Below are positions 1 through 30,551 of a stretch of DNA of 32,000 nucleotides, in pieces. The position numbers were made by a program, and so were the translations under genes. The notes beneath the pieces are model-generated. The model saw only the letters and a list, made by a program, of their open reading frames with translations. It was not told the origin of the DNA and did not search any database. The DNA lies in contig CATXID010000001.1 in assembly GCA_958369225.1 (NCBI GenBank), positions 597,295 to 629,294 of the forward strand, given 5' to 3'. The DNA comes from an uncultured Collinsella sp. (lineage in GTDB: Bacteria; Actinomycetota; Coriobacteriia; Coriobacteriales; Coriobacteriaceae). Every line of letters starts with the position of its first letter. Position 1 is the stretch's first letter.

Positions 1-1877
1 CCGCACAGATCATGTTTAGGCAGGTCTTCGAAAACGCCAAGGTGACGGTTGGCAAAAACGTTTTTGACGTTGAGGAATATCTGGACGACACCCGTTTTAA
101 CAGCGCGTCGGGGCTGGCGCTGCGCGTTATTTCTGGTGTGGATGGCGCCCCGATCCCTTCGCGCGAGGACCTGCTCCTTAGCTCTAGCAGGGGAGAGGCC
201 ATTGTGGCGCTCGATGCCCAGCAGGATTATTACGACTGTCTGTATCAGTCGGCATGTATTGAGCAGTATCTCAATAGCCGTCAGGCAGACAATCACAGCG
301 AAGTGGTGGCTTCGATCTTGCGTGGTAAGCAGCAAGAGCGTGTCGCTCTGGATAAGCGTGCCGAGGACCTTATGCGCCAGGCGGTGCTGCATGGAACGTT
401 CTATATCTACGGCAGTGAGTATTCGCCAGTCAAATCGGCGTCTGCCAAGAATATGATCGAGGACTGCGTACGCCAGCTTGTTTCCGTTACGTACAACAAG
501 TTGTCGCTTATTGATAAAAACTACGACAGTGATGTGCAGATCAAGCAAATTCTAACCGCTTACACTCCGGCAATGAATGGGCAAGAGCCTAACGCTGGGG
601 CCATCGAAGCGGTTATGCGCCTGCTGGAAGCTCGCGTTGCCCAACATATGCAGGTAACAATGGGTGAGCTGCTCGAGACGTACCATGCGAAGCCTTATGG
701 TTGGGCGGAAATTGACATTGCCGCCGTGGTTGCAACGCTGCTAGCGCAAAAGCGTGCTCGCCTGCTCTGCGCGGGACAAGCGATTGATCTTAGGGATTCC
801 AAGATCATCGATTATCTGCGAAAGGCTGCTAAGGCACGACAGGCTGTTGTTGAGGCGCGCCAGCAGCTTTCTCGGGCTTCCATATCCAAGGCGCGACAGG
901 CCGTAGAAGAACTGGGCGGCAATCATACTTTGCCGCTCGAAGAGGACAGTCTTGCCGAAGCATGCCGTAAGGAGCTTGAGGGGCGCCGCGACGGCTTAAC
1001 GGGTCTTCTTTCGGTCGAGTACCTGCGTAACCCCGATTACCCGGGCTACAAAGAGGTCGTGGATGCAAAGAACCTTATCGAGAGCGTATTGCAGAGTGGC
1101 CGCGATGCCGTCGATCTAATTGCGGCAATCGCTGGAAAAGAGAACGAGCTGCGGGATACGGCTGAAGATCTCGAAGACATTGACGAGTTTTTCGGGAGCA
1201 AGGTGACCGTATTCGACAGTGCCTGCGAGATATTCAAGCAAATAGAGAGCGAGCGCGATTACTTTGAGGGCTCCTCGGAAACGCTGAATGCACTTTCTGT
1301 CATCAGGGAAGCAGTTAAGAAACCAAGTCTGAGCCTGCAGTTCCAAAAGCTATCCGAGGCAAACCTAAAGGTGAGAGCTGCCTACAAGGAGCTTTTGGAC
1401 CAAAAGCGTATCGCCATGCTCAATTCTGTCGAGGAGCGCTATAAGGATATCGAAGCGTATGCCCAAAACAAGGGCGTTGCGCTGACGCGCATTGGGGAGG
1501 CGCATAGTGCTCGAAAAGATGAGGTACACAATGCAGCGACGCTGACCGCCCTGGATGCTGTGCCCGTCAAGCTCGATCGTGCTCAGACGACCCTGTACAA
1601 AATGATTGACGATGCCTATGAAGAGGCGAATCGTCCCAAACCGGCAAATACGAGCGTGACGGTAACGACTGATTATTCGGGGGCCACTGCGCCAGGCCTG
1701 CCGAATAAGCCCCAATCTGCACCGGCACCTAGGCGACGTGTTAAATCGGTGAGTCGCAGCATGGTGTTTAGGCCGCTGGAGCTGAGCTCGCAACAGCAGA
1801 TTGATGACTATTTGGATGCCGCGCGCAAAGAGCTACTGCGAAGCCTTGAGGGTAATGACGCCATCCGTTTGGGCTAA
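1..1877 (+). CDS. brxC: C-terminal ~620 aa of a large protein whose 5' end is off-window. Its position directly upstream of pglX fits the BREX ATPase BrxC/PglY.
   Basis: The frame is open from the first bases of the window, with no stop before the ATG at 12. It ends at TAA 1875-1877, 9 nt before the pglX start. The visible part is long and helical with no catalytic motif; the P-loop part would lie upstream. The assignment rests on brxC-pglX synteny only. Confidence 0.55.
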   Translation, partial: AQIMFRQVFENAKVTVGKNVFDVEEYLDDTRFNSASGLALRVISGVDGAPIPSREDLLLSSSRGEAIVALDAQQDYYDCLYQSACIEQYLNSRQADNHSEVVASILRGKQQERVALDKRAEDLMRQAVLHGTFYIYGSEYSPVKSASAKNMIEDCVRQLVSVTYNKLSLIDKNYDSDVQIKQILTAYTPAMNGQEPNAGAIEAVMRLLEARVAQHMQVTMGELLETYHAKPYGWAEIDIAAVVATLLAQKRARLLCAGQAIDLRDSKIIDYLRKAAKARQAVVEARQQLSRASISKARQAVEELGGNHTLPLEEDSLAEACRKELEGRRDGLTGLLSVEYLRNPDYPGYKEVVDAKNLIESVLQSGRDAVDLIAAIAGKENELRDTAEDLEDIDEFFGSKVTVFDSACEIFKQIESERDYFEGSSETLNALSVIREAVKKPSLSLQFQKLSEANLKVRAAYKELLDQKRIAMLNSVEERYKDIEAYAQNKGVALTRIGEAHSARKDEVHNAATLTALDAVPVKLDRAQTTLYKMIDDAYEEANRPKPANTSVTVTTDYSGATAPGLPNKPQSAPAPRRRVKSVSRSMVFRPLELSSQQQIDDYLDAARKELLRSLEGNDAIRLG

Positions 1878-1886
1878 GGGAGAAAC

Positions 1887-4436
1887 ATGGATACGAAAGA
1901 GCTCGAAAAGTTTTGCCCTTGGGCGCGCATCCGTTTAATTGACGAGGTTCGTCAGCGTTGCTATGCCTACGGGCTCGACGATGCGGGGCGTGAAGAATTC
2001 GATCGCGATGCAACCATCGTTAAGGGCACGGTGCTCTCTGCGCTCGAGCGTTCACAACGTTCGGAGCTGTATCGCCGCATAGAGCATGGCGGCTATGCGC
2101 ACTTTTGCGAGGAAATGGCCTACACCTGGTTCAATCGCTTCGCTGCAATACGCTATATGGAAGTACGAGGCTATCTGCCTTGTGGCGTCCGCATGCTAAG
2201 TTCATATTGCGAAACCTCGGGGTACGATAGATTTTCGCCAGACTGCTTGCGTATGCCGACGGAGCTTGATCTGCCGGGCTTAGAGCGCGATCGCGTGTTT
2301 GACCTTGTCGCTGCGGCAGATGATGAGGCGCTGTTCCGTCTTATTTTGGTGGCGCAGATGAACGAGCTCGCCGAGTGCCTGCCCGACATCTTTGGCCGCG
2401 TGGGCACGGCGGATGCGTTACTGCTTCCGACAAGGCTTTTGGACTGCGGCGAAGAAGGTGTACTGTGCGCTCTAGTCGAACGGGTTAAGCGAAGCACGTG
2501 GGAAAACGTTGAGTCCTTGGGCTGGATGTATCAGTTCTACAATTCCGAGGTCAAAGACGCATTCTTTAAATCTAAGGCCAAGGAGACGCCGGACACCATT
2601 GGTCCGGCAACACAGCTATTTACGCCCAGCTGGATTGTGCGCTACATGGTGCAGAATTCCTTGGGGCGCTTGTGGATGCTGAACAATCCGGGAAGTCCCC
2701 TGCGCGACGACATGGAGTACTACATCGAGCCCGATACGGAGCACGAGGACTTCATTAAAATCGAGGGCCCCGAGGATATTTCGCTGTGTGATCCGGCTTG
2801 CGGATCGGGTCACATTCTCGTTTACGCTTTTGAGCTTTTGGCAAAGATGTATTTAGAGCGCGAATACCGCATGCGCGATGTCCCCGGACTCATTCTGTCC
2901 AAGAACCTTCATGGTATGGAAATTGACCCTCGCGCCGCCCAGATTGCGGGGTTGGCGCTGGCTATGTGTGCCCGAGAGATGGATAGACGTTTCTTTAACC
3001 GTGGAGTTCAGGCGGATATTGCCGTGCTCGAGCCGGTTATGCTGGAGGAGGATGACATTCCGCACGGCGCCGCGCTTGCCAAGAAGAAGGACCTCATCGA
3101 TGCTCTATCGCATCTGGGCGAGGTCGGCTCGCTGCTCGCTCCAAGTGAGGGCGACCTTGCCGCACTGCGTGAGACGATCGAGCTCACCGGCACCGATGGT
3201 CTGTTTGACGGTAGTTCTAAAAACAAACTGGAATGTGCCCTTAAGACCTGCGAGATCCTCGCTCGCCGCCACGACTGCGTGGTGGCCAACCCGCCCTACA
3301 TGGGAAGCTCTAGCTTCGGCTCCTTCATGTCTAAGTGGGTCAAGAAGAACTACCCCGACGTGAAGAGCGATTTGTTCTCCAGCTTTGTCGTCCGCATGTT
3401 CAATCTCGCCAAAGACCACGGCGAGTGTGGCGTCATGTCGCCCTTCGTCTGGATGTTCATCGGAAGCTACGAGAAGCTCCGCAACGAGATTATCGACAAC
3501 AGAACGCTGACTTCTCTCATCCAGCTCGAGTACTCGGGTTTCGCTGGTGCGACTGTGCCCATCTGTACCTACACGTTCCACAATTCATTCATCAAGGGCT
3601 ACAAGGGCGGCTATGTGCGCCTTTCGGACTTCGTTGGAGCTTCCGGTCAGGCCCCGAAGGCCCTCGAGGCGATCCGAAATCCCGACTGCGGCTGGTTCTA
3701 CCGTCGCGACGCCGAGACCTTCAAACAGATCCCCGGCACTCCCATAGCCTACTGGGCTAGCGACGCGCTTCTGGATGCGTTTGAAAACGCAAAGCAACTC
3801 AGTGAGTACGGAAAACCGCGTCAAGGGCTTGCTACTGGTGAAAACGCTCGTTTCGTTCGCGAGTGGTGGGAAGTCGATGGTTGTAAGAGCGCCTACTCCT
3901 GTGGGTCTATTCAAGAGTCGATTGAAAGCGCTTGTAAATGGTTCCCCTACAACAAGGGTGGCGATTTCCGTAAATGGTACGGAAATAATAGCGCAGTTGT
4001 TAACTGGGAGAATGACGGATGGGAGATTCGTAATTACAAAGACCAGAATGGTAAATTGCTTTCCAGGCCACAGAATACAAACTGCTTCTTTAGTCCATCG
4101 ATTACCTGGTCGAAGATTTCGAGTGGGTCTATTGCATTTCGCTTTAAGCCTGCTGGCCATGTGTTTGATGTGGCGGGTACAAGCGTTTTTAGCGATCAGA
4201 AATCACTCAAGTATCTTCAGGGAGCGTGCAACAGTTCTGTGATTATGCGCGTCGCGAGCATGCTTTCGCCGACACTCAATTTCGAGGTAGGCCAAATCGC
4301 AACCTACCCGATTATTCAGAACGAAGAGCAGGAGCCGTTGGTCAACAATATGGTTGACTCGTGCCGCAAACTATCAAAAACCGACTGGGACTCGTTTGAA
4401 ACCTCCTGGGATTTCAAACGTAATCCTTTGGTGTAG
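1887..4436 (+). CDS. pglX: BREX N6-adenine DNA methyltransferase PglX, N-terminal 849-aa part (N-terminal helical region, SAM-binding and catalytic domain, and the following domain)
   Basis: SD AAGGGAG precedes ATG 1887. The N-terminal signature EMAYTWFNRFAAIRYMEVRGYLP is typical of PglX and type IIG enzymes. SAM motif I DPACGSGH lies at 2790-2813 and catalytic NPPY (VVANPPYMG) at 3288-3299. The ORF ends ...DWDSFETSWDFKRNPLV at TAG 4434-4436, about 320 aa short of a full-length ~1200-aa PglX. Confidence 0.9.
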   Translation: MDTKELEKFCPWARIRLIDEVRQRCYAYGLDDAGREEFDRDATIVKGTVLSALERSQRSELYRRIEHGGYAHFCEEMAYTWFNRFAAIRYMEVRGYLPCGVRMLSSYCETSGYDRFSPDCLRMPTELDLPGLERDRVFDLVAAADDEALFRLILVAQMNELAECLPDIFGRVGTADALLLPTRLLDCGEEGVLCALVERVKRSTWENVESLGWMYQFYNSEVKDAFFKSKAKETPDTIGPATQLFTPSWIVRYMVQNSLGRLWMLNNPGSPLRDDMEYYIEPDTEHEDFIKIEGPEDISLCDPACGSGHILVYAFELLAKMYLEREYRMRDVPGLILSKNLHGMEIDPRAAQIAGLALAMCAREMDRRFFNRGVQADIAVLEPVMLEEDDIPHGAALAKKKDLIDALSHLGEVGSLLAPSEGDLAALRETIELTGTDGLFDGSSKNKLECALKTCEILARRHDCVVANPPYMGSSSFGSFMSKWVKKNYPDVKSDLFSSFVVRMFNLAKDHGECGVMSPFVWMFIGSYEKLRNEIIDNRTLTSLIQLEYSGFAGATVPICTYTFHNSFIKGYKGGYVRLSDFVGASGQAPKALEAIRNPDCGWFYRRDAETFKQIPGTPIAYWASDALLDAFENAKQLSEYGKPRQGLATGENARFVREWWEVDGCKSAYSCGSIQESIESACKWFPYNKGGDFRKWYGNNSAVVNWENDGWEIRNYKDQNGKLLSRPQNTNCFFSPSITWSKISSGSIAFRFKPAGHVFDVAGTSVFSDQKSLKYLQGACNSSVIMRVASMLSPTLNFEVGQIATYPIIQNEEQEPLVNNMVDSCRKLSKTDWDSFETSWDFKRNPLV

Positions 4437-4964
4437 GTGGTCGCAGTGGGACCTGTAACAATCGATGGTGCAAACTATTACTCATCTCAAGATGTCGCTG
4501 AGCTGTGGGGCGTTAAAGAGGCTACGATCAGGAGATATGCAGAGCCGAAGTCCGGCAAAATTCCTGATTGTATTAAACGTGGCAAATACTGGTATATCCC
4601 CGTAACCGCAATTCGGCCGATTACAAAACCAGTGGCGCAGGGCTTGCTGTGGGGCATCATAGGCGTAAAGAATGACCCTTCTTCCTTTTTAGATTTAAGC
4701 GCGGAAGGAATTGACAATTCTTTACTGGACACCGTTCTTAATGAGCTGCATCGGCAGAATTATTTACTCGTGGACTTTGCTATCGATGATCTTCACGAAA
4801 GACTTGTCCAAGCACGAATTACAGTCAAAGGATTTGAGTTAGTTCGTTATAGGAAGCGTTTCAAAGAGAATTCTCTCGAAGATTTTGATCCTGCCGACGC
4901 TATATCCATTGCTCTGTCTGCCGTTCAAACAGTTATGCAGTTAGCTCAATTCTTTCAGGGATGA
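4437..4964 (+). CDS. Small helix-turn-helix protein (excisionase/MerR-like HTH_17-type N-terminus plus an uncharacterised helical C-terminus), encoded inside the pglX split
   Basis: The N-terminus YYSSQDVAELWGVKEATIRRYAE...GKIPDCIKRGKYWYIP matches the Xis/MerR-like HTH pattern (helix-turn-helix followed by a G-K-x-W/Y-x-I/F wing). There is no internal ATG, so the start must be GTG 4437 or GTG 4446; the latter has AGGTGG 5 nt upstream. The sequence is visibly more AT-rich than its flanks. Confidence 0.7.
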   Translation: MVAVGPVTIDGANYYSSQDVAELWGVKEATIRRYAEPKSGKIPDCIKRGKYWYIPVTAIRPITKPVAQGLLWGIIGVKNDPSSFLDLSAEGIDNSLLDTVLNELHRQNYLLVDFAIDDLHERLVQARITVKGFELVRYRKRFKENSLEDFDPADAISIALSAVQTVMQLAQFFQG

Positions 4965-5138
4965 CGAAACCGACTTTATGACGAGCGGGGCGTGGGCGTG
5001 ATGAGTGATAGCTGGTCGTACTCCTTACATCTTTCTCGCTTTAATAAACGGCTTCATTTGTTGTTACTTCGGCTACTCTGCCGTATCAAAATGTCGCCAC
5101 TTGAGCTGAATTACGGCTCGATTAGATTGGGTGTAAAC

Positions 5139-6107
5139 ATGTCAACACTACTCGCCGATAAATACGAGGCTCGCAAGGCCGAGGTCAATGCTCGCTTTGA
5201 GCAGCTTCGCGCTAACGAGGAGGAGCTCAACCGAATCTTTGCCAAGATCTACAACATGGAGGGCGAGGTGCCCATCGAGGTCGAGGATAAGTACGTGTCG
5301 GTGGCACGCATCTTCGACACCGCCGACGAGATCCCCGAGAGCTATAAGGGCAACAAGTATGTGCGCACCAAGCGCGACGAGATCACCTCGCTCATGAGCT
5401 ATGCCGTGGGCTGCATGTTCGGCCGCTATTCGCTGGACGTGGACGGTCTGGTTCTGGCCGACCAGGGTGCCACGGTCTCTGACTATCTGGCCAAGATGCC
5501 CGATCCCGAGAATGTGACCTTTATGCCAGATAGCGACAACGTGCTGCCTATCACCGATGACGAATACTTTGACGACGACATCGTGCGTTACTTTATCGAC
5601 TTTGTGCGCACCGTGTATGGCGAGGAGACGCTCGAGCAGAACCTGGCCTTTATTGCCGAGGCGCTCGGCGGCAAAGGCACCTCGCGCGAGGTAATTCGCA
5701 CCTACTTTTTGAAGGACTTCTTTAAGGACCACTGCCAGACCTATAAGAAGCGCCCTATTTATTGGCTGTTCGATTCGGGCAAGAAGGGCGGCTTTAGGGC
5801 GTTGGTCTACATGTATCGCTATCGCCCTGATTTGTTGGCGCTGATTCGTACGGGTTATATCCATCCTCAGCAAGAACGTTACCGCAATCGGCTGATGTGG
5901 ATTGCCGACCAGATGGAGGTAAGCGACAGCCGTGATCGTGCTCGTCTTGCTAAGGAACAAAAGCGCATAAGCGACCAAGCTGCCGAGCTCGTGAGCTACG
6001 AGGAGAAGGTCCATCACCTTGCAGACCAAATGATTGAGATTGATTTGGATGACGGCGCTAAGGTTAATTACGCCAAGTTCCAGGACGTCCTCGCCAAAAT
6101 CAAATAG
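5139..6107 (+). CDS. pglX: PglX C-terminal fragment (322 aa)
   Basis: EELNRIFAKIYNMEGEV...EVEDKYVSV and KKRPIYWLFDSGKKGGFRALVYMYRY are the conserved C-terminal blocks of BREX PglX. It is in the same reading frame as 1887-4436. 849 + 322 aa adds up to about a full-length PglX. Recognisable homology starts at the ATG at 5139; the frame is open back to 4965, but that stretch looks non-coding. Confidence 0.85.
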   Translation: MSTLLADKYEARKAEVNARFEQLRANEEELNRIFAKIYNMEGEVPIEVEDKYVSVARIFDTADEIPESYKGNKYVRTKRDEITSLMSYAVGCMFGRYSLDVDGLVLADQGATVSDYLAKMPDPENVTFMPDSDNVLPITDDEYFDDDIVRYFIDFVRTVYGEETLEQNLAFIAEALGGKGTSREVIRTYFLKDFFKDHCQTYKKRPIYWLFDSGKKGGFRALVYMYRYRPDLLALIRTGYIHPQQERYRNRLMWIADQMEVSDSRDRARLAKEQKRISDQAAELVSYEEKVHHLADQMIEIDLDDGAKVNYAKFQDVLAKIK

Positions 6108-6139
6108 CCGTCTGCGTGCTAGAAGTCGAAAGAGCCGCT

Positions 6140-8095
6140 ATGGGATCATTGGTAAACAACAATCAGATCATTCGAATCGATAGCAATCTTCTGCTCGATC
6201 CAGCCATGTGCGATGCGTACATGGACGGTTCCTACCTATGCTTGACCCCCAATGAGTTCAACATCTTGTTTTGTATGGCTCAAAAACCGGGTCATGCATT
6301 TTCTCGCCAAGAGCTGTTTGTTGCGGCATTTGGCCACGATGACCCTAAGTCGCATCGAGTGCTCGATAGCCATATCAAGAACATTCGCAAGAAACTGAAA
6401 GAAGATGCCCGCAACGCTCGTTGGCTTAAGGGCGTTCACGGTTATGGCTATCGTCTCGATTTTGCTCCGGGATTTGAGCCTGAGGTGTGCGTTGGTGAGG
6501 GCGGGCGTGTATTTCGTTCTGCGCATGGCGACCGTGTGCTTGTCGTTGATTCTGAGAACCGTATTGTTCAGCTCGATGGCGAGGAACTCGCGCTTACGCC
6601 AATTGAATATAGTGTCTTGAATGCACTTACGACTAGGTCAAGCGTTGAGATTTCAAATGAGGAACTGTCGCAGATCTCGATGGGCGTTGGCTTCGCCGAA
6701 TCGAATAGAGCTCTAGCTTCGCATGTTAAAAACCTCCGTAAGAAACTGGGAGATGAGGTAAAGAATCCCCTGTGGATTAAAACGGTGCATGGTTTTGGCT
6801 ATCGGTTTTTGGGTGCCGAAGAAACTCCCGAGCCGCATGAAGAGCAAATACTAGATGACACCCTAGTCGAGCTTTCCGAGCAGCTGCAAATGGCGTTTGA
6901 GGCAACGTCCGGTTCCATTCTTTTGTGGCATGACGTTGGGGGCGCGTATGCGGATGTCGTCGGACAGCTTTTGTTGCCCGATGATGTCGTGTTGATTCGC
7001 GAGGATGCTGCTAACAAATTTGAGACCATCCGAGCCATTAACGAACTCGGTTTTGACGAGCGAGCGCTATTCTATCGGTCGTCACCGTGCGTTGTCGATG
7101 CAAATGACTGGTTTGCAGACGTTGAAGCAAGCGCCGAGAGCTTTGTCCCTGAGGCGCATGTTGAGGCGATTGAGACACGAGAAGTCGTCGCCGATGTCGA
7201 TGAATGCGGGCCGGCCGCGGCAGCTCCGCGCGCTGCTGTGGCTGAAGACGTACATCCCCAGCCGTTCCATGGCGAGCATGTTGATACCGGATCTGAAGGC
7301 GTCATGGCCAGTGAGCCAACTCTTCCCAAGCTTGATGAGGATTGGTATCTGCTTTCCCAGTTTGCGGAGCTGGCGGGATGCTCGCCCGACGAAACGCTCA
7401 AGCTGGAATTGTTTGCCTATCAAACGGGGTTCGCGCTTTACGCTGACTGCGCCTGCAGAGGTAGGGGTGTAAGCCAGACAGATTTCTACCTGTCTTTGAT
7501 GCATGGAGCTATCGTCGAGCACGATAGCCTGCCTCAATCCATGTTGAACTGTATGTCCTTTAAAAACATGGTCTATCGAGCCATTAGGTCGGGCGACTTG
7601 CTTGACTACGATGAGTCGAGCTGGATTACGCGCGATGGTCTTAATGAGCTTGATATTAGGGATGCCGATTTGCGCAGCTTTGCTTTGGATGCTATCGAGC
7701 GTGGCGCTGATGACGGCACGCCGTACTTTACCGTGCCGTGGCTTAGGCGCTGCGCATCCGATTTGCCCTTACTCGAGTATGGTCTATCCGATGCATTTTA
7801 CGAAAGCGCCCTCTTGTCGCAGGAGGACTTGTTGGGCCACGGAAACCTTGTGGGCATTAAGCTCTTTGCGCCACGCGGCCATTCCATGAAGGGCCGTGAT
7901 TTTATCCAGGCGGTGGTGGCGCGCGAGATATCGATCGATATCGACGATCTTGTCGGCTTGCTTTCGGAAGAGTACGGCGTAGTGGTTCCGCGTGCACAGC
8001 TCATCCAGATAATTCGTAAGTCGGACTTGTTTTATTCAAGCGCTAGCGAGCGCGTATTTGTTAGCCATGACCAGTTTGTACTAGAAGTGGAGTAA
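6140..8095 (+). CDS. Multidomain protein: two tandem OmpR/PhoB-type winged-helix DNA-binding domains, a PglZ-N-terminal-like domain, an acidic linker and an unknown ~260-aa C-terminal domain
   Basis: wHTH 1 spans ~6167-6463 (LTPNEFNILFCMAQKPGHAFSRQEL...HIKNIRKKL...GYGYRL). wHTH 2 spans ~6536-6814 (LTPIEYSVLNAL...HVKNLRKKL...GFGYRF). There is no receiver domain. Residues encoded at ~6863-7153 parallel the first ~100 aa of the PglZ encoded at 11220 (ILLWHD / IVVWHD, LFYR / LIYR, DWFADVEA / DWLADVEA). ATG 6140 has GAAAGAG upstream; GTG 6116 is an alternative start. Confidence 0.8.
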   Translation: MGSLVNNNQIIRIDSNLLLDPAMCDAYMDGSYLCLTPNEFNILFCMAQKPGHAFSRQELFVAAFGHDDPKSHRVLDSHIKNIRKKLKEDARNARWLKGVHGYGYRLDFAPGFEPEVCVGEGGRVFRSAHGDRVLVVDSENRIVQLDGEELALTPIEYSVLNALTTRSSVEISNEELSQISMGVGFAESNRALASHVKNLRKKLGDEVKNPLWIKTVHGFGYRFLGAEETPEPHEEQILDDTLVELSEQLQMAFEATSGSILLWHDVGGAYADVVGQLLLPDDVVLIREDAANKFETIRAINELGFDERALFYRSSPCVVDANDWFADVEASAESFVPEAHVEAIETREVVADVDECGPAAAAPRAAVAEDVHPQPFHGEHVDTGSEGVMASEPTLPKLDEDWYLLSQFAELAGCSPDETLKLELFAYQTGFALYADCACRGRGVSQTDFYLSLMHGAIVEHDSLPQSMLNCMSFKNMVYRAIRSGDLLDYDESSWITRDGLNELDIRDADLRSFALDAIERGADDGTPYFTVPWLRRCASDLPLLEYGLSDAFYESALLSQEDLLGHGNLVGIKLFAPRGHSMKGRDFIQAVVAREISIDIDDLVGLLSEEYGVVVPRAQLIQIIRKSDLFYSSASERVFVSHDQFVLEVE

Positions 8096-8099
8096 GACA

Positions 8100-9323
8100 A
8101 TGGAAATGGAAAAGTTCATCAACACGGGTATTGCTGAGGGCTGGGTTCGCAAAACCGACAATAGCGAGCGCAAGTTTATTAACGGTCAGAACCAGGATTG
8201 TCCAATTTACGAGGTGCGCGTCGATAAGTTGCATTTCAATGTGCAGAATGGACGAATTGCTACCTTCATTTCGCGCTATCAGGCAGAGCATCCCGAGGGC
8301 CTGCCTCAGGATCAAACGGAGCTCGATAACCTCATTGCGGGTATGGTCGAGGCGGATAACCCCAAGCATCTTAAGACGACCATGTTGGATATTAAAAACA
8401 AGGGCCAACAACAATCTGCGATCATCTTGACCAACGGCGTTGTCATTGACGGTAACCGTCGTTTTACCTGCTTGCGTAAGTTGTCTGCTGCCGAGAACAC
8501 CCTTCGCATGCTGCGCTGCTGTGTGTTCCCCGATACCTATGACGAAAATGCCATTAAGGGCCTTGAGCTCGAGATTCAGCTGGGCGAGGACACCAAACAG
8601 GAATATGATGCCATCTCTCGTCTGGTAGATATCGATAGGTGGGTCAATGAAGGGCGTATGACGGCAGAAGAATATGCCAAGCATGCCAATATGAAGCAGA
8701 GCGAAATGAAGAACAGTCTCGCTCAAATCGATATGTTGAAAGATTTTCTTGAGTTCTGCGAGGCTCCCGGCGCATTTCATATTGCCCAGGACCTTAAGTT
8801 GCAAGGCCCTATCGAGTCGCTTACGACCAGGCTTGGTAAGGTCAAGAACAAGGACGATCGAGAAGAGATTAAAAATGCCGTGTTTGCAAATTTGTTGTGT
8901 CAGACGCTCGGTGACCGCACGCGTGAGGTGCGCGAGTTTATCGATAATTTGATTGATGACGACAAGCTGCGCGAAGAGCAGCTGGATTATACCGTTGAGG
9001 TTTTGGAAAGGCTTGAGGAAAAGCCCGAAGACGTGGTTGTCACTACGGAATATCTTCGCGATACGTTTGGCTCTGACACGCGTTTGAAAGAGGGGATGAA
9101 GGCGTCTAGAACCGTTGCCCGCACGAAGGCCGGCAATCGTAACATCAAAAACGGACAAGTGCGCGCCGTCCGCAACGCACTCTCGAATGTTGGCGAAGTT
9201 GACGTGGAAATACTACACAAACTGGAGCCCGAACAACTTGCCAATATGCAGGATGGGCTGCAGTCCCTTCTTGAGAAAGCCCAGGAAGTTCTCGATGTCG
9301 TCCAAAAAACTCTAGAAGGCTAA
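8100..9323 (+). CDS. ParB/Srx-fold (ParB N-terminal-like) domain protein with a helical C-terminal half
   Basis: KGQQQSAIILTNGVVIDGNRRFTCLRKL is the ParB-N/DndB-like core, with DGNRR at 8448-8462. The upstream block VRVDKLHFNVQNGR resembles the first ParB-N box. The ATG is 4 nt after the preceding stop and has GTGGAG upstream. Confidence 0.75.
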   Translation: MEMEKFINTGIAEGWVRKTDNSERKFINGQNQDCPIYEVRVDKLHFNVQNGRIATFISRYQAEHPEGLPQDQTELDNLIAGMVEADNPKHLKTTMLDIKNKGQQQSAIILTNGVVIDGNRRFTCLRKLSAAENTLRMLRCCVFPDTYDENAIKGLELEIQLGEDTKQEYDAISRLVDIDRWVNEGRMTAEEYAKHANMKQSEMKNSLAQIDMLKDFLEFCEAPGAFHIAQDLKLQGPIESLTTRLGKVKNKDDREEIKNAVFANLLCQTLGDRTREVREFIDNLIDDDKLREEQLDYTVEVLERLEEKPEDVVVTTEYLRDTFGSDTRLKEGMKASRTVARTKAGNRNIKNGQVRAVRNALSNVGEVDVEILHKLEPEQLANMQDGLQSLLEKAQEVLDVVQKTLEG

Positions 9324-9326
9324 GCA

Positions 9327-11204
9327 ATGCGTTTATATCAGCGAGGCGGACAAATCTATCTTGATCCCGAGCCTCTCGATGCCGACTCTCTGCGTCGCAA
9401 TGCTCGCTTTAAGATGACCTGCAGGGCATACGTCAGATGTGTCGTTAAGGGTCATATTTTGCTTGAAGAGATCGGCAACTATACGGAGTTCGAAAAGATT
9501 GTTGGCAAGTTATCGAAGGTTGCCAGCCGTCTTGGTGTGGCGCTATCGGTCGATGAGGACCTTCAGGACGGCTTTACGCAGATTCGCGAACTTGCCGAGC
9601 AACGTTCGCGTTTGGGGAATGAGATCAAACGCGGCGATCACAAGCACGATGCCCATCTCGCAGAGTTCTCGGAGGTCGTCGATGCCGCCATGGTGCGTCC
9701 GCTAAAGGATCGTCAGATGCGCGACGCGTTTTTCTTGGCAACGATGGGACGTGCGGGAAACTTCTCGGTGCCGGGGTCGGGTAAAACGGCGACCGTGCTG
9801 GGTGCATTTGCCTTTTTGGCGGCCCGCAGCATGGTCGATCGCATTATGGTCGTGTGCCCAAAAAACGCATTTGATTCCTGGGCGACGGAGTGGGGACTGT
9901 GCTTTGGTGATAAGCGGCCGCTCAGCTTGTTTACGACGCAAGACGATGCTTACCGAAAGCTTGGTAAGTCTGACCGTCGGAGCTATATTCGCGCTCGTGT
10001 GGGCGGTTGCAATTTGCTGCTTGTGAATTACGAGGCGGCTATTGGCGTTGCCGAGGAACTCAGTAAGGTCGCTGGAAATCGTACGCTTTTGGTGTTCGAC
10101 GAAATCCATCGCGTTAAGCGCGTTGGCGGAAAGCAAGCTAACGCGGCTCTCGTGGTTTCCAAGAGTGCTCCCTATACGTTTGCCCTGACGGGCACGCCAA
10201 TTCCTAACGGATATATCGATATTTACAATATGTTGCACATTCTGTATCCGCGGGAGTATGACAACTTTTTTGGCTTTGAGAAAAGCGAGCTCAAAAATGC
10301 CGAGGACTCGGACATTGAGCTCGTGAACAACAAGCTGCAGCCGTTTTATTGCCGTACGACCAAGGATGACCTAGGCGTCCCGAGGGCTGAGCCCGACGAG
10401 CTTATCAAGGTGTCGTCTGGCGAGCGTACGAATCTACTGCTCGGCGTTATTAAAAACCGTTACCGTCGCAACAAGCTGACCTTGATGCTGCGTGTGCTGC
10501 AGATGGAAAACGATCCGATTGACCTGCTCGAAACGCTTAATCCCGAAGACTATCGTTGGATTATCGAAGAAGACGAGGAGACCGGCGAGGTCGATGCCGT
10601 CGACTACTCCGATAAGATTGTGGGCATGATTCGATCTGCCGGGGCATCGAGCAAACGTGCTCGATGCTGCTCTCTTATTGGCGACTTGGTGGCACAGGGG
10701 CGCTCGGTTATCGTCTGGTGCATTTTCATCAAGAGCATGTCCGATCTTCAGCGCGGTCTGGCTGGTATGGGGATTGAGGCGCGTACGATTAACGGCCAGG
10801 ATGACCTTGTCTGTCGTTCGGCAGACCTGGATGACTTTAGGGCTGGCAAGTTTCCCGTACTCATTACCAATCCTCATACGCTTGCCGAGTCTGTCTCGCT
10901 GCATTCGATTTGTCACGATGCCGTGTACTACGAGTACAGCTTTAATCTGGTTCATTTGCTGCAGTCCCGCGATCGAATCCACCGTTTGGGCCTGCCGCAA
11001 GATCAGCAGACAAGGTACTACTACCTTTCGGAAGATTACGACCTTGGAAAACCCGATCCATGGTCGCTTGACGAGGAAATATATACTCGCCTGCGCGAAA
11101 AAGAGAACACCATGCTCAGGTGTATTGATTCCGAAATACTCGAGACGCAGCCTACCTCTCAAGAGGATTTGGATGCTATTTTCGCCGGTTTGTTTGATGA
11201 CTAG
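9327..11204 (+). CDS. SNF2-family superfamily-2 helicase/translocase (the COG0553-like class to which BrxHII belongs)
   Basis: Motif I VPGSGKTA lies at 9768-9791 and motif II DEIH at 10098-10109. Motif III LTGTPIPNG is SNF2-typical, and the C-terminal helicase lobe has motif VI LLQSRDRIHRLGL. The ATG is 3 nt after the ParB-like stop. Confidence 0.9.
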   Translation: MRLYQRGGQIYLDPEPLDADSLRRNARFKMTCRAYVRCVVKGHILLEEIGNYTEFEKIVGKLSKVASRLGVALSVDEDLQDGFTQIRELAEQRSRLGNEIKRGDHKHDAHLAEFSEVVDAAMVRPLKDRQMRDAFFLATMGRAGNFSVPGSGKTATVLGAFAFLAARSMVDRIMVVCPKNAFDSWATEWGLCFGDKRPLSLFTTQDDAYRKLGKSDRRSYIRARVGGCNLLLVNYEAAIGVAEELSKVAGNRTLLVFDEIHRVKRVGGKQANAALVVSKSAPYTFALTGTPIPNGYIDIYNMLHILYPREYDNFFGFEKSELKNAEDSDIELVNNKLQPFYCRTTKDDLGVPRAEPDELIKVSSGERTNLLLGVIKNRYRRNKLTLMLRVLQMENDPIDLLETLNPEDYRWIIEEDEETGEVDAVDYSDKIVGMIRSAGASSKRARCCSLIGDLVAQGRSVIVWCIFIKSMSDLQRGLAGMGIEARTINGQDDLVCRSADLDDFRAGKFPVLITNPHTLAESVSLHSICHDAVYYEYSFNLVHLLQSRDRIHRLGLPQDQQTRYYYLSEDYDLGKPDPWSLDEEIYTRLREKENTMLRCIDSEILETQPTSQEDLDAIFAGLFDD

Positions 11205-11219
11205 TTTTGAGAGTTTGCC

Positions 11220-13841
11220 ATGAAGCTTGCAGATATTACATCCGAGCTGCTGCATTTGTTTGCAGGTCAGGACGCCGATTGCGGGGGCGCCATTGTTGTA
11301 TGGCATGATCCGTCCGGTGAATTTGAGGATATGCTTGCAGATTTGGAGCTGCCGGGCGTCAGCGTTCTCGTTGATCGCGAGGGTGGTCGGTTTGCTATCA
11401 AGCGTAAGCTCAATGGTGACTTGGGCGGACGTAAGGTGCTTATATATCGTCGCTGCGTAGGGGAGCCGTCTGGCGATTGGCTGGCGGATGTTGAAGCGCG
11501 TTGCGTCCCGTTTGCCGCCGACTATGTTTCTGTGCAGCTACGCGAGATCGGCGCGGTTGATTCGTATGAGATGCGCGCGGCGCTTGAATCCCATAAAGCT
11601 TTTTTTGCCAAGCGCCGCAACGTTATAAAGCTCAACAAGTTGCTACATTCATCGAGAGAAGTCGCTGTTGAGACCGTCGATGAGCTTGAACTTGGCATTT
11701 TGGCTACCTGCTTGGGTGTCAGCGAGCTCGATCCCGCGGCAATCGTATCAGGCTATTTGGCACTCCTGCACGAGGGCAATGCTGATCAGGTGGTTGTCCT
11801 ACTTGCTGAATATGAGATGAATGGCTATTTCTGCGAGCTCATTCGTCATTGGTGTGGTTTTGAGGGGAACGCGCTCGAGCTATCTCGTGTTCCCGAGTTG
11901 CTGGTCCACGTGTTGCTCACCGCCTGCTCACGGTCGGTGACGGGTGGATGTCTGGACGCGCTGTCGGGACGCTTCTCTTCCCAGGCTGTTCACGCCGCGT
12001 TCTGCCGCGCTTGCGTTGATCATTGGGTTCGTGGCGGTAATCGTCTATTGCTGTTGAGTATGACAACGGCGGTAGAGCGTGAGCTTGAGCTTGGAAAGAT
12101 ACTCGCTGACGTTGGTCTTGACTGTATTGCCGGAGCCGACGTCTTTCCCTGCATCGATGCCGCCATTCTGCGCATGCTGTTTGAGCGGGTACGTCTGTCT
12201 GTGGATGCTGCTGATGAGGTTTTGTCGGTCGTCGTCTCTCGTCGCGGATCGCTCTGGTATGAGGAACTTGCCTGCTATTATCGCGGCGTTTCGGCTGCAG
12301 CTCATATGCAGCGTTTTTATCGCGACCATGTAGAGGGTTTTGCGGGCATGGGGGCTTTGGCCCTTTGGGGTTCTTATGTCAGCGATTTCTATCGCATGGA
12401 CGCTTGGTACCGTGAGCTGGTGACAGAGTTCGCCGGTGCCTTTAGAGCGGGGGAGTACGAGCTCGATGAAGACTTCCGCGCCTGCTTTGAGTCGATGGAA
12501 GCTTTGTATAAAGGCTGGTTTCTTAAGGAGCTCTCTCGCCGTTGGGCAAGCGCATCGGGCGACGCATTGGGCTTGCAGGGATATGTGAAAGGTATTCCGC
12601 GTCAGGTTGATTTTGATCTGAGCTACGTTGAGCCCGCGAATCGCCGCGGAAAGCGTATTTGGGTCATCGTATCTGATGCTTTGCGCTATGAGGTTGCTGC
12701 AGAACTCGCCGAGCGTCTTGAGCGCGAGACAAAGGGTCAGTGCGAGCTTGGTGCCGTGCAAGGCGTGTTTCCTTCGATAACCAGATGCGGTATGGCTGCC
12801 TTGTTGCCTCATGGAACGATGCGTTACGAGGCATGCGGAGAGGCAGGATCGGGCTTTGGCGTGCTTGTTGACGGGGGGCGCGTCGATACCATCGAATCCC
12901 GCCAAAAGGTGATTGGCAAGCATTATGAGGGCGCTGTTGCGGTTCGCTATGACCGTTTTGTCGGCGAGATGGACCGTGCCGAACGCAAGAAAGCCGTGGG
13001 AGACGCGAACGTTGTCTATATCTATCACGATCTCATTGATGCCATTGGTGACAAGGCCGCAACCGAGCGCAGGGCGTTTCATGCCTGCGATGAAACAATT
13101 GACGAGTTATCGGTGCTGGTCAAGCTCATTGTGCGTGAGTTTATGTCGTCTCGAATCGTCATTACGGCAGATCATGGGTTTCTGTATACCGCAGAGCCGC
13201 TTGCCGAATATGATCATACGAGTGTTGCGGACGTGGCGGGTGACGTCATTGAGGCTGGACGCCGCTGGGCTGTTGCCTCGAGCGATTCTGAGTCCGATAC
13301 GCTGCTTAAGGTTGCTCTACCCGCTTCTGCTGGTAGCCTCGTGGGCTTTTCGCCACGTGAATGCGTGCGTTTGCGACGTCCCGGCGGAGGCGAGAACTTT
13401 GTCCATGGCGGCATCTCATTGCAGGAGATGTGTGTGCCGGTCTTGACCTTTAGCAATAAGCGCGCCGGAACGCGTGGCTTTGTCGCATCGAGCCCCGTTG
13501 GCTTGTCCCTCGTTACGCAACTTGAATCCATCTCGAATACGTCTTTCTTCCTGGAATTTCTGCAAGATGAGGCGGTGGTCGGCAAGATTCTTCCTGCGAA
13601 CTATGAAGTGTTTGTTGTCGATCGCAGCGGAAACCCTGTAACCGACATTGCAAGAATCGTAGCCGATTTGACTGAAGTCGATGCGAGGGCGCGCCGCTTT
13701 AAGGTAATGCTGACGGTGCGTCCAACCGTTGAACTTGATGAACGCGCGGAGTATGCACTTTGCCTGAAAAACGCGGATAGCGGCGAAGAGCGTGTTCTTC
13801 AGACGCTGCACTTCCATGTTTATCTGGGTCGTGAATGGTAA
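11220..13841 (+). CDS. pglZ: BREX alkaline-phosphatase-superfamily protein PglZ
   Basis: It is 873 aa. The PglZ-domain signature VIVSDALRYEVAAELAERL lies at 12663 onward. The alkaline-phosphatase-like ITADHGF lies at 13161-13181 and is followed by HGGISLQEMCVP. It sits in BREX context. Confidence 0.9.
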   Translation: MKLADITSELLHLFAGQDADCGGAIVVWHDPSGEFEDMLADLELPGVSVLVDREGGRFAIKRKLNGDLGGRKVLIYRRCVGEPSGDWLADVEARCVPFAADYVSVQLREIGAVDSYEMRAALESHKAFFAKRRNVIKLNKLLHSSREVAVETVDELELGILATCLGVSELDPAAIVSGYLALLHEGNADQVVVLLAEYEMNGYFCELIRHWCGFEGNALELSRVPELLVHVLLTACSRSVTGGCLDALSGRFSSQAVHAAFCRACVDHWVRGGNRLLLLSMTTAVERELELGKILADVGLDCIAGADVFPCIDAAILRMLFERVRLSVDAADEVLSVVVSRRGSLWYEELACYYRGVSAAAHMQRFYRDHVEGFAGMGALALWGSYVSDFYRMDAWYRELVTEFAGAFRAGEYELDEDFRACFESMEALYKGWFLKELSRRWASASGDALGLQGYVKGIPRQVDFDLSYVEPANRRGKRIWVIVSDALRYEVAAELAERLERETKGQCELGAVQGVFPSITRCGMAALLPHGTMRYEACGEAGSGFGVLVDGGRVDTIESRQKVIGKHYEGAVAVRYDRFVGEMDRAERKKAVGDANVVYIYHDLIDAIGDKAATERRAFHACDETIDELSVLVKLIVREFMSSRIVITADHGFLYTAEPLAEYDHTSVADVAGDVIEAGRRWAVASSDSESDTLLKVALPASAGSLVGFSPRECVRLRRPGGGENFVHGGISLQEMCVPVLTFSNKRAGTRGFVASSPVGLSLVTQLESISNTSFFLEFLQDEAVVGKILPANYEVFVVDRSGNPVTDIARIVADLTEVDARARRFKVMLTVRPTVELDERAEYALCLKNADSGEERVLQTLHFHVYLGREW

Positions 13842-13868
13842 GTGGGGGCTGAATAGGGAGGCTGCATC

Positions 13869-14090
13869 ATGAAGATCGAAGTTGATGTCGGTCAGCTGCG
13901 CGAGAGTCTGCTCGATCGTGCGGGGAGCGCGACGGCCGCGGGCTTTCCGGCTGCCATGCTCGACGTGATGGATATCGAGGACGAGTCGCCCCAAGAGTTC
14001 CTAGCCCGAGCCGAACGCGAAGGCCTCGACCTCTGCGACTTTGCCGTCGATGATGAGGACGACGGCTATGACACGGACGAGGACTGGTAG
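13869..14090 (+). CDS. 73-aa highly acidic hypothetical protein with C-terminal tail DDEDDGYDTDEDW
   Basis: A strong SD GGGAGG lies 7 nt before ATG 13869. It is co-directional with pglZ and starts 27 nt after the pglZ stop. It is the last ORF before the island boundary. I recognise no domain. Confidence 0.55.
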   Translation: MKIEVDVGQLRESLLDRAGSATAAGFPAAMLDVMDIEDESPQEFLARAEREGLDLCDFAVDDEDDGYDTDEDW

Positions 14091-14110
14091 CCGCGATTGA
14101 ACTTCAACCC

Positions 14111-14205
14111 CATCCCCCTCAATAAGTTGCGGTGGAATAGGGACTGAAATGGCTGTTCAGAAGCCTATTCAGTCCCTATTTCACCGCAACTTATGGGTGG
14201 GGATG
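14111..14205. repeat. ~95-bp imperfect palindromic element with core arm AAGTTGCGGTG(G/A)AATAGGG
   Basis: Left arm ATAAGTTGCGGTGGAATAGGGACTGAA (14122-14148) pairs with right arm TTCAGTCCCTATTTCACCGCAACTTAT (14068+100 = 14168-14194) with one mismatch. The outer extension CCATCCCC.../...GGGGATGG also pairs. The element fills the convergent gap between the acidic ORF and the antiporter gene. A related copy lies at 31933-32000. Confidence 0.8.
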
Positions 14206-14206
14206 G

Positions 14207-15808
14207 CTACGACGCCAGCGTGGCGATGACGGCTTCGTCGCCGGCGTATATGAGGGTGTTGCCGTCGGGAATGATCGTTTGGCCGTCGCGCTTGAGCATC
14301 ACGACGATAAAGGGGTGCTTGCCCTGCGGCACATCGCGCAGGCGCAGCCCCGCCAGGCGACCGTGGGACGTAACGGTGACTTCGCGCAGCGTAACCTCGG
14401 CACGCTCTTCAAACGTTGGCGCGGCCATAACCAGAAGGTCGCCTTCTTCGATGACGGTGTCGCCGTTGGGCAGCACCGGGTGCGCGCCGTCGCGCAGTAC
14501 CAAGACCACCAGCATGTCCGTGGCGCTGCCAATATCGGCGAGCGAGCGTCCGGCAAACGGATGTCCAGCTCCCACCTTGAGCTTGACGAACGACATGCCG
14601 TCCTCGTCGCGGTAATCGTTAAAGGTGCGGCGCACGTCGCCTTCCGCGTCGATCATGTCGAGCTTCTTTGCCACCGCCGGCAGCAGCGAGCCCTGCACCA
14701 CAATGCTCGACACAGCAATCACAAACACCAGGTCAAATAGGTCGTGCCCACCGGGAACGCCGGCTACCACGGCAAAGAGGCTAAATACGACCGAAGCCGC
14801 GCCGCGCAGCCCCGCCCAGCTTACGAGTGCGACCTGGCGAGGGTTCGTCTTAAAGGGTGCCAACAGCATGCCCACGGCGATGGGGCGGCTCACAAAGAGC
14901 ATAAACGCCATGAGTGCCAGGCCCGGTAGCAACATTTGCGGCAGGCGCGCGGGCGTCACGAGCAGGCCGAGCAAGAAGAAGATGGTCATCTCGGCCATCT
15001 CGGTAAGAGTGTCGAAGAAGTGCGCCATCTCGACCTTGCCGGTGATGTCGCTCGCACCCAGCACAATTCCGGCAAGGTACACGGCCAAAAAGCCGTTGCC
15101 ACCCAGATAACTCGGCAGTGCGTAGGCGACGATCGCCACAGCGAACAAGAAGATGGTCTGCGCACCCTCGGCTGTTGCATGTGTGCGTTCGATCAAGCGG
15201 CCCGATGTCCAGCCGATGACAAGGCCCAGGCCCACACCTAGGATGATTTGCTTGGCCAGCAGCACGGGGATGTTAACGTCGCCGCCCGCCGCGAGGGTCG
15301 CGAGCACGGCGGTGAGCATGTAGGCGACGGGATCGTTGGAGCCCGATTCGACTTCGAGCAGCGAGTCGGTGCCGCCCTTTAGCGAAAGACTGTGCTCGCG
15401 CAGCACGCTAAAGACGCTGGCCGCGTCGGTGGATGCCACGACTGATCCCAGCAGCAGGCCGCCGATCCAGTCGAAGCCCAGTACAAAGTGCGCGAACACG
15501 CCCGTGATGCCAGCGGTGATGACGACGCCGAGCGTGCTCAGCAGCACCGCGGGCACAGCGACAGGTTTGGCGCGGTCGATGTTGGTGTTAAAGCCGCCGT
15601 AGAACATGATGAACAGCAGCGCCGTGCTGCAGACGGTTTCGGTGAGCGCATAGTCGCTAAAGTCGATGTGCGCCGGACCGTTGACGCCCAGCAGCATGCC
15701 GAGTGCGATAAAGATGAGCAGGGTGGGGAAGGGGAGCTTTTTGCCGACGGGCTTGATGGTCAGGCACAGAATAATGACGAGCCCGATAAAGAGAAGTATC
15801 TGGTTCAT
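14207..15808 (-). CDS. K+/H+ (cation:proton) antiporter, CPA1/NhaP2-CvrA type, with C-terminal TrkA-C/RCK-C domains
   Basis: It has a multi-TM N-terminus with ASTDAASVF and LLEVESGSNDP motifs. Two TrkA-C-like repeats are present at the C-terminus (DGAHPVLPNGDTVIEEGDLLVMA and DGQTIIPDGNTLIYAGDEAVIA). The ATG has AGGAG upstream. Confidence 0.9.
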   Translation of the reverse strand: MNQILLFIGLVIILCLTIKPVGKKLPFPTLLIFIALGMLLGVNGPAHIDFSDYALTETVCSTALLFIMFYGGFNTNIDRAKPVAVPAVLLSTLGVVITAGITGVFAHFVLGFDWIGGLLLGSVVASTDAASVFSVLREHSLSLKGGTDSLLEVESGSNDPVAYMLTAVLATLAAGGDVNIPVLLAKQIILGVGLGLVIGWTSGRLIERTHATAEGAQTIFLFAVAIVAYALPSYLGGNGFLAVYLAGIVLGASDITGKVEMAHFFDTLTEMAEMTIFFLLGLLVTPARLPQMLLPGLALMAFMLFVSRPIAVGMLLAPFKTNPRQVALVSWAGLRGAASVVFSLFAVVAGVPGGHDLFDLVFVIAVSSIVVQGSLLPAVAKKLDMIDAEGDVRRTFNDYRDEDGMSFVKLKVGAGHPFAGRSLADIGSATDMLVVLVLRDGAHPVLPNGDTVIEEGDLLVMAAPTFEERAEVTLREVTVTSHGRLAGLRLRDVPQGKHPFIVVMLKRDGQTIIPDGNTLIYAGDEAVIATLAS

Positions 15809-16029
15809 GGATGGTGTCCGCTCCTGGGTGGTTTGCGTGGCACGGTCAGTTGTCTGCGGTTATTTGTACCCAAAGATGGTGGGTTTATGGGCTTGGATTG
15901 CGGGCGTGCGCATTTTCGACACGAGACCGCGACGCGAGCGTCGCTGGTTGGGGCGCTGCATCAGACGGCGTGGCGTGAGCGGTGCGGGTTGACGGGCGTG
16001 CGCCGGCGACCGTTGACGGTATGCAACCC

Positions 16030-17146: not shown

Positions 17147-17158
17147 GCTGCCCGCTGG

Positions 17159-30544: not shown

Positions 30545-30551
30545 TCCGAAG

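Follow-up and report, generated by a model that had tools for sequence, protein, structure and literature searches.

The DNA analyzed here, 32,000 nt from an uncultured Collinsella sp. (contig CATXID010000001.1; hereafter the window, with all positions numbered over the whole stretch), carries a type 1 bacteriophage exclusion (BREX) operon in which PglZ's N-terminal domain is encoded twice, once on PglZ itself and once on a protein of 651 aa. This protein, designated A, is encoded between pglX and pglZ and is followed by proteins B (407 aa), which is probably ParB-like, and C (625 aa), an SNF2-family helicase. In canonical type 1 BREX, the DNA motor supplied is BrxL. The chances are, in our assessment, somewhat better than even that A is a docking adaptor, which would couple the ParB-like/SNF2 module to the hub formed by BrxB and BrxC in place of BrxL.

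A second PglZ N-terminal domain

An earlier note on this DNA, made from its letters alone, had set nucleotides 6863-7153 against nucleotides 11235-11522, that is, residues 242-338 of A against residues 6-101 of PglZ, and had concluded from shared landmarks that the locus encodes the PglZ N-terminal domain (PglZ-N) twice. The positions were correct, and the homology was borne out by four independent tests. When whole A was compared with whole PglZ by BLASTP, a single significant alignment resulted (A 258-351 with PglZ 23-112, 35% identity, E=6e-9), all others having E>1. The hidden Markov model (HMM) of PADLOC for PglZ, PDLC02547, matched A 244-337 with its positions 5-95 (E=6.9e-6). A profile built from 14 members of the A family and compared with the window PglZ by hhalign aligned at family positions 18-99 and PglZ 19-98 with a probability of 98% (E=1.8e-13). 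Last, A 235-651 was modeled with AlphaFold2, which yielded an N-domain with a predicted local distance difference test score (pLDDT) of ~70-84. Its best Foldseek match in the PDB was 9zll_F, which is Acinetobacter PglZ residues 1-98 crystallized with BrxB and BrxC (target-normalized template modeling score 0.81, root-mean-square deviation 2.4 Å over 96 columns); the full-length PglZ chains 9zn5_B and 9nv3_C were also matched, both with a probability of 1.00. Among the shared landmarks, WHD and DW(F/L)AD(V/L)E are invariant or nearly so across diverged members of the A family. Identity of just 35% over ~95 residues could suggest chance resemblance of short motifs without common ancestry, but the E-values of the three sequence comparisons and a PglZ N-domain as best fold match refute this explanation, the probability of which we put close to nil.

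A is not a PglZ, because its 651 residues gave no match to the PglZ catalytic domain PF08665 and because hhalign aligned residues 19-98 of PglZ alone. The C-terminal part of A was also considered as a possible copy of the central region of PglZ and rejected, as comparison of the A family with full-length PglZ by hhalign revealed nothing beyond the N-domain. A neighbor-joining tree split cleanly into A-type N-domains and PglZ N-domains. The single clade formed by the copies on A, apart from PglZ, points to an old, maintained paralogue and not a recent accident.

The earlier note had also described two OmpR-type winged helices in A without a receiver domain, which was confirmed (Table 1): no Response_reg match was obtained for A, and response-regulator models of NCBIfam matched with their C-terminal parts only, far below their cut-offs. 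It had considered these winged helices the sole other recognizable parts of the protein, which did not hold. Residues ~395-651 form a further conserved domain of 255 aa, which AlphaFold2 predicted (pLDDT ~90) to be a run of winged-helix units and which, according to Foldseek, resembles tandem winged-helix (tandem-WH) arrays such as those of UFL1/DDRGK1 and ESCRT-II; a disordered linker of variable length parts it from the PglZ-N copy. The corresponding positions of the A-family profile (130-386) matched the C-termini of hundreds of ~900-aa proteins that carry C-terminal domains of the RNA polymerase alpha subunit (alpha-CTD) and sigma-70 region 4 (sigma-4). In most lineages, A relatives are 372-443 aa long and lack any OmpR domain (P0040-43, P0050-67). 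Thus, sequence-specific recruitment of BREX by the winged helices, which the earlier note had thought a reasonable inference, cannot be the conserved function of A. Judged by domain content across the family, the conserved core of BREX-type A is the PglZ-N-like domain together with the C-terminal tandem-WH domain, and the OmpR winged helices are a lineage-specific addition rather than part of the functional core. That the PglZ-N copy attaches a helicase module to BREX is better supported than recruitment of BREX by the winged helices.

The tandem OmpR module of A is closest (~40% identity) to that of solo alpha-CTD/sigma-4 proteins. Members of the latter (P0044-P0047; L132, positions 9001-11589) comprise 862-874 aa, with a C-terminal coiled coil in addition to alpha-CTD, sigma-70 region 4, and two OmpR winged helices. 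They contain no A-type C-terminal domain, have no B or C neighbors, and adjoin a type I restriction-modification (RM) system and an integrase. The genomic context of the nearest relative, P0045, was consulted for the origin of the OmpR module, but was uninformative, this being a solo gene without B or C.

A three-gene cassette and its association with BREX

An HMM search of 1.8 billion representative proteins returned 784 relatives of A. The full layout of PglZ-N plus C-terminal domain was found in ~20 clusters (at 50% identity), most of them of 365-460 aa and without OmpR domains, a few of ~615-620 aa (P0051, which was checked, has two OmpR domains), and one of 1448 aa. Hundreds of proteins of ~880-950 aa matched the A profile by the C-terminal domain only, at their C-termini. 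Those examined contain two alpha-CTD helix-hairpin-helix (HhH) domains and a sigma-70 region 4 helix-turn-helix, and their source annotation reads only 'DNA-directed RNA polymerase subunit alpha C-terminal domain-containing protein'. Three of these alpha-CTD-type A proteins were looked up in their genomic context; each was followed by a ~403-aa protein without Pfam match and then by an SNF2 helicase of ~620-635 aa, with no BREX nearby. Such free-standing cassettes, in which A has ~850-1600 aa and no PglZ-N, derive from Firmicutes and gut metagenomes, and one of them (L038) is located in a defense island beside GmrSD, AbiEii, and Macro genes. Window B is 32% identical to its counterpart in another free-standing cassette, L037 (E=2e-68), and window C is 48% identical to the L037 helicase over 605 residues. 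As both are orthologous to the L037 partners by this comparison, window positions 6140-11204 are the BREX-embedded version of a free-standing three-gene operon, A-B-C.

To what extent the cassette is linked to BREX was quantified in the best 80 of at least 409 B-homologue matches in metagenomes, together with the loci collected earlier, all annotated with purpose-built HMMs; BREX context was scored at places with at least 8 kb upstream and at least 5 kb downstream, and absence of BrxL in loci with at least 2.5 kb after pglZ. B had an open reading frame (ORF) with the A-type C-terminal domain directly upstream at 104 of 105 places and was directly followed by an SNF2 gene at all 108 of 108. Every A that carried PglZ-N and no alpha-CTD (25/25) lay inside type 1 BREX, between the C-terminal piece of pglX and pglZ. 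Of the alpha-CTD-type A proteins without PglZ-N, just 2 of 17 had any BREX gene nearby. Protein look-up added four more diverged lineages with the embedded order (L001, L002, L042, and L044); their A proteins and that of the window share 30-43% identity. BrxL was absent downstream of pglZ in all 25 embedded loci, each of which has one BrxB, whereas 8 canonical BREX loci, from related Coriobacteriia and from other taxa, encode it. In two of the diverged lineages, a protein of 630-665 aa without Pfam match is encoded after pglZ, the usual place of BrxL (L042, 17012-19009; L002, 12139-14031); by phmmer it is not BrxL.

The window itself conforms to this pattern. It provides BrxC, a split PglX, and PglZ; BrxA, a single BrxB, and full-length BrxC are encoded upstream of pglX in a locus 99% identical to the window (L004), and BrxA and BrxB were likewise observed in L001, L042, and L044, so that the complete type 1 core (BrxA, BrxB, BrxC, type 1 PglX, and PglZ type A) occurs in one operon. 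PglX and PglZ models of types 5 and 6 scored far below the type 1 models on the window proteins. No BrxL was found 3′ of the window pglZ, where a Na/H exchanger, PEPCK, and other housekeeping genes are located instead.

Members of the B family share an invariant IDGNRRFTCLR motif, and six of eight of them matched the ddrB-ParB family PF18763 at E=0.02-0.05, that is, below the threshold. Searches of PDB sequences with B alone and with a B-family profile gave no match, and an AlphaFold2 model computed from the B sequence alone was of no use (pLDDT 37.5). A ParB/Srx-like fold is likely for B on the strength of the motif and the sub-threshold matches. A role of B as a BrxB paralogue, partnering the extra PglZ-N, was considered and dismissed (best BLASTP match to L001 BrxB, E=0.28). 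A phage origin of the cassette gained no support: the viral contigs scanned contained no full-length B homologue, only five partial matches of 27-35% identity to the ParB-like core. In C, the GSGKT and DEIH motifs are intact. Its matches to PADLOC and other models for ZorD, PbeA, DpdE, and DrmD were weak and partial, as were those to the PADLOC models of BrxHII (E=0.006) and BrxHI (E=5e-6); as far as such profiles can tell, C is not an orthologue of BrxHI/II, DrmD, ZorD, or DpdE. PADLOC v2 assigned no specific system to A-B-C, A matching the PglZ model over its N-domain only and B matching nothing.

A as a putative adaptor on the BrxB-BrxC hub

Residues 1-98 of PglZ constitute its BrxB-binding domain (bioRxiv 10.1101/2025.03.26.645558; PMC13326643). 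According to published work, BrxB docks on the AAA+ domain of BrxC, thereby excluding a further BrxC subunit, and either one or two BrxB:PglZ units are found on dimers of full-length BrxC, C2:(B:Z)1 and C2:(B:Z)2. The idea of the earlier note that the domain is a docking module agrees with these PglZ structures; that A, too, binds BrxB is what we infer. Of the residues of Salmonella PglZ reported to contact BrxB (K58, E62, and D88; bioRxiv 10.1101/2025.03.26.645558), D88 corresponds to D90 in the window PglZ and to D327 in A; the A family conserves this Asp to at least 90%.

We envisage A as a scaffold or adaptor for the ParB-like protein B and the SNF2 helicase C, within a module inserted into a type 1 BREX operon. 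The tandem-WH domain of A would most probably hold B and/or C, given that B and C remain constant and that no other part is shared by every A protein. The protein's N-terminal half would then be an exchangeable targeting module, consisting of alpha-CTD, sigma-4, OmpR-type winged helices, or PglZ-N. In the BREX-embedded lineage, this half would have been replaced by the PglZ N-domain paralogue, to which two OmpR-type DNA-binding winged helices would have been added in Collinsella. Through its PglZ-N copy, A could occupy a BrxB site on the BrxB-BrxC hub, and since a BrxC dimer has room for two BrxB:PglZ units, a mixed complex in which PglZ and A each fill one position is conceivable. The putative ParB-like/SNF2 translocase module would in this way be brought next to PglX and PglZ and might serve as DNA motor in place of BrxL.

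The same domain on A and PglZ, together with one BrxB per locus, might also mean that A is a competitor or regulator. Its PglZ-N would either titrate BrxB from PglZ or switch the BrxB-BrxC hub between methylation and restriction assemblies, making A a regulatory subunit to which the OmpR winged helices of Collinsella, being classic transcription-factor modules, would add transcriptional or DNA-site control. Hub occupancy would be limiting in this case, given that BrxB on BrxC leaves no room for a further BrxC subunit. A pure competitor, however, needs neither B nor a helicase, and A appears to be always co-encoded with both, the SNF2 protein being apparently active; moreover, most A-family members are without OmpR domain, and the two BrxB sites per BrxC dimer seen in C2:(B:Z)2 would permit sharing without exclusion. 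We consider a regulatory role of this kind unlikely, but competition with PglZ for BrxB is a rival still to be reckoned with.

Several observations weigh against A as an adaptor that replaces BrxL. The 25 embedded loci represent only about six diverged lineages, and the counts are therefore not independent. Two of the three BrxB-contacting residues are altered in A: the position of K58 is taken by I297 (with R298 adjacent) and that of E62 by N301, the cognate PglZ having N at the E62 position as well. In three islands (L062, positions 1-21224; L071; and L108), A bears PglZ-N and the visible flanks are free of BREX genes; PglZ-N on A can, thus, persist without adjacent BREX. In L102 (3-11424), an alpha-CTD-type A without PglZ-N is followed by B, C, PglZ, and a retained BrxL, and in L118 (5208-21185) a cassette with A lacking PglZ-N is located just upstream of brxA, from which it follows that adjacency to BREX does not require PglZ-N on A.

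The three BREX-less islands contain two A-B-SNF2 cassettes in tandem, and L046 and L106 show part of this arrangement. In the second cassette, A is a fusion of 1449-1471 aa comprising alpha-CTD/sigma-4, PglZ-N, and the C-terminal domain, equivalent to P0055. It is followed by a DpnII-type RM system and then by the same Na/H exchanger that flanks the window island, which means that the same chromosomal site holds a BREX-less alternative island still carrying the PglZ-N copy. In the neighbor-joining tree, the N-domain of this fusion is nested beside the Collinsella OmpR type. This position indicates one old acquisition of PglZ-N by A, the BREX-less form being of secondary origin. The L118 arrangement, in which A has ~1580 aa and a 362-aa unknown gene precedes BrxA, is shared by L117, L121, and L122, where the cassette lies immediately upstream of BrxA-BrxB-BrxC-PglX; it represents a second recurrent type of cassette-BREX adjacency.

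Persistence of a PglZ-N-bearing A in islands without visible BREX would suit a guard or decoy, that is, an autonomous A-B-C defense system residing inside BREX, whose PglZ-N serves as bait for phage anti-BREX proteins aimed at the PglZ-N/BrxB interface and triggers the ParB-like/SNF2 effector. Independent systems between pglX and pglZ are indeed known (PARIS in Salmonella, which senses the anti-BREX protein Ocr), and free-standing A-B-C cassettes occur in defense islands, beside GmrSD, AbiEii, and Macro genes. On the other hand, the strict absence of BrxL fits a replaced BREX component better than an added guard, and no obvious toxic effector domain was detected in the cassette by Pfam and PADLOC scans. 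To our knowledge, no phage inhibitor of the PglZ N-domain has been described. Such a guard appears distinctly improbable to us.

Cassettes that lie next to pglZ (L102) or just upstream of brxA (L118) without having PglZ-N could be taken to mean that A-B-C is merely co-located with BREX and mechanistically separate from it, the interval between pglX and pglZ being an insertion hot spot; it does hold varied cargo in related loci. PglZ-N on A would then serve a purpose unrelated to BrxB, for example, sensing of nucleic acids or invaders, and Rakesh and Krishnan read the PglZ N-domain ('inactive Swi2/Snf2-like' fold) as a fast-evolving sensor module. However, BrxB binding is the only experimentally established function of this domain, its presence on A coincides with loss of BrxL, and, among A proteins without alpha-CTD, it was found in BREX-embedded cassettes only (25/25). 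We rate mere co-location as improbable, and A as adaptor between the helicase module and the BrxB-BrxC hub remains the reading we favor.

A natural BREX variant without BrxL, but with a ParB-like/SNF2 module bearing its own copy of the BrxB-docking domain, bears on how BREX stops phage DNA and on the roles of BrxL and of the BrxB-PglZ-BrxC sub-complex; it leads to the prediction that BrxB recruits interchangeable effector or motor modules. In its most general form, which we hold to be possible but doubtful, BrxB would be a general socket of BREX into which effector modules plug via a PglZ-N copy, and A-B-C would be a widespread, unnamed defense or DNA-surveillance system, one lineage of which was captured by BREX through domain duplication and took the role of BrxL. 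If true, this would be the first case in which duplication of a core interaction domain served to recruit an accessory motor to BREX, and would offer a handle on the missing 'motor' step of BREX restriction. Hundreds of gut and environmental contigs contain the A-B-C operon, Pfam, NCBIfam, and PADLOC give no identity for two of the three proteins, and its occurrence in defense islands makes it a candidate new defense system.

Locus layout and relation to known systems

The features of the window are compiled in Table 1. The genes from brxC to pglZ fill its first 13.9 kb, all on the + strand and tightly packed; intergenic gaps of 0-32 nt on a single strand fit one operon. The GC content is 50-55% in the BREX island (1-14000) and 60-63% in the flanking housekeeping region (14001-32000), which shows that the island was horizontally acquired, with its right boundary near 13.9 kb.

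Table 1. Features of the window, their positions, and the evidence for their assignment.
Feature	Position	Strand	Basis
BrxC, C-terminal 621 aa; gene start upstream of the window	12..1877	+	Pfam BREX_BrxC_4th, winged helix-turn-helix and helical domains; NCBIfam BREX_BrxC, model positions 572-1172
PglX methyltransferase, N-terminal piece, 849 aa	1887..4436	+	NF033452 BREX-1 PglX, model 1-899 of 1210, E=1.4e-266
HTH_17 protein, 175 aa, between the pglX pieces (variable cargo slot)	4437..4964	+	Pfam HTH_17, E=4.4e-8
PglX, C-terminal piece, 371 aa	4992..6107	+	NF033452, model 904-1209, E=2.4e-110
Protein A, 651 aa	6140..8095	+	ORF carrying the finding
A: first OmpR/PhoB-type winged helix, residues 34-106	6239..6457	+	Pfam Trans_reg_C, two stretches, E=3.2e-38; PDB matches BaeR, CpxR
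A: second OmpR/PhoB-type winged helix, residues ~133-222	6536..6805	+	NCBIfam VanR and RstA models at 133-222; PDB match RstA at 134-225
A: paralogue of the PglZ N-terminal (BrxB-binding) domain, residues ~239-338	6854..7153	+	BLASTP, PADLOC HMM, hhalign, AlphaFold2/Foldseek
A: predicted disordered linker, length-variable, residues ~339-393	7154..7318	+	pLDDT <50; gap-rich region of both A-family alignments
A: C-terminal tandem winged-helix domain, by which the A family is defined	7319..8095	+	pLDDT ~90; profile matches; Foldseek
Protein B, 407 aa, probable ParB/Srx superfamily	8100..9323	+	IDGNRRFTCLR motif; orthologue in L037; weak PF18763 matches
Protein C, SNF2-family helicase, 625 aa	9327..11204	+	Pfam SNF2-rel_dom and Helicase_C; GSGKT and DEIH motifs
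PglZ N-terminal domain, residues 1-105 (reference copy)	11220..11534	+	Alignment with PglZ N-domains from Salmonella and Acinetobacter (9nv3_C, 9zn5_B, 9zll_F)
Rest of PglZ: central region, phosphodiesterase, C-terminal domain	11535..13841	+	TIGR02687 BREX-1 PglZ type A, E=3e-142; Pfam PglZ, residues 478-660

The split of pglX into an 849-aa N-terminal and a 371-aa C-terminal piece was seen in all related loci examined and apparently also in the canonical Coriobacteriia BREX loci L025 and L029, as judged by ORF lengths only. The cargo between the two halves differs among loci (ParE toxin-antitoxin, DUF3800, DUF2971, or unknowns). Inverted repeats were sought at the split gene, as expected of a phase-variable pglX, but just two short, imperfect pairs were found, which lends this possibility no support. 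The housekeeping flank of the island encodes a Na/H exchanger, PEPCK, DegV, and NAPRTase. Four ORFs of 302-526 aa had no Pfam match at E≤0.001 (16074-16982, 17362-18942, and 26971-28119 on the − strand; 24366-25403 on the + strand); spurious ORFs, as arise in GC-rich DNA, may be among them.

The domain on A is homologous in sequence to the PglZ N-domains of known structure (9zll, 9zn5, and 9nv3), is predicted to adopt the same alpha/beta fold, and has retained the WHD and DWxADxE motifs, including the BrxB-contacting Asp of the Salmonella protein. Unlike these, it forms its own paralogue clade and is not attached to a PglZ phosphodiesterase; it is flanked by DNA-binding winged helices on one side and by a tandem-WH domain on the other, in a protein whose partners are the ParB-like B and the SNF2 helicase C. 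The free-standing A-B-C cassettes agree with the window in gene order, in the C-terminal domain of A, and in having orthologous genes for B and the SNF2 helicase; they differ from it in that A carries the alpha-CTD HhH pairs and sigma-70 region 4 instead of PglZ-N, and in that BREX is mostly absent nearby. C has the SNF2 core motifs in common with DrmD of DISARM, ZorD of Zorya, and DpdE of Dpd, and the DGxxR-type motif of B, reminiscent of the ParB/Srx fold, recalls the ParB-like NTPase domains of GmrSD, SspE, and DndB. All model matches to these systems are weak and partial, however, and a fused nuclease domain is absent.

In BREX types 5 and 6 and in BrxL-less type 1 loci, the place of BrxL is taken by helicases (BrxHII, or BrxHI plus BrxD). 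The window resembles them in having a BREX-1-like core without BrxL and with an SF2 helicase gene. In contrast to types 5 and 6, which are marked by BrxHII, or by BrxHI plus BrxD/BrxE, together with PglX and PglZ of type 5/6, its helicase is not BrxHII or BrxHI, has two obligate partners, and is encoded between pglX and pglZ, and its PglX and PglZ score as type 1. An adaptor bearing PglZ-N was not found described for types 5 and 6 in the literature searched. A comparative BREX survey from 2026 (PMC12839542) covers the PglZ N-domain, type 1 loci devoid of BrxL, and numerous embedded effectors, but neither the cassette nor a PglZ-N paralogue. Neither the PglZ-N copy as a domain in its own right, nor the C-terminal domain of A, nor B is represented by a model in Pfam, NCBIfam, or PADLOC, and no description was found in literature on BREX and Collinsella, on ParB-SNF2-alpha-CTD, or on BrxL-less type 1 with SNF2, the coverage of which was incomplete, so that an earlier description may exist. 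A type 1 BREX in which a captured SNF2 cassette of three genes, equipped with a duplicated core docking domain, would act as motor module is an apparently undescribed arrangement.

As separate modules inside a BREX locus, PARIS (ariAB, between pglX and pglZ in Salmonella BREX) and BrxU (pEFER BREX island) are comparable with A-B-C. These, however, share no domain with the BREX core, whereas the module in the window carries a copy of a core interaction domain, which argues for its physical coupling to BREX.

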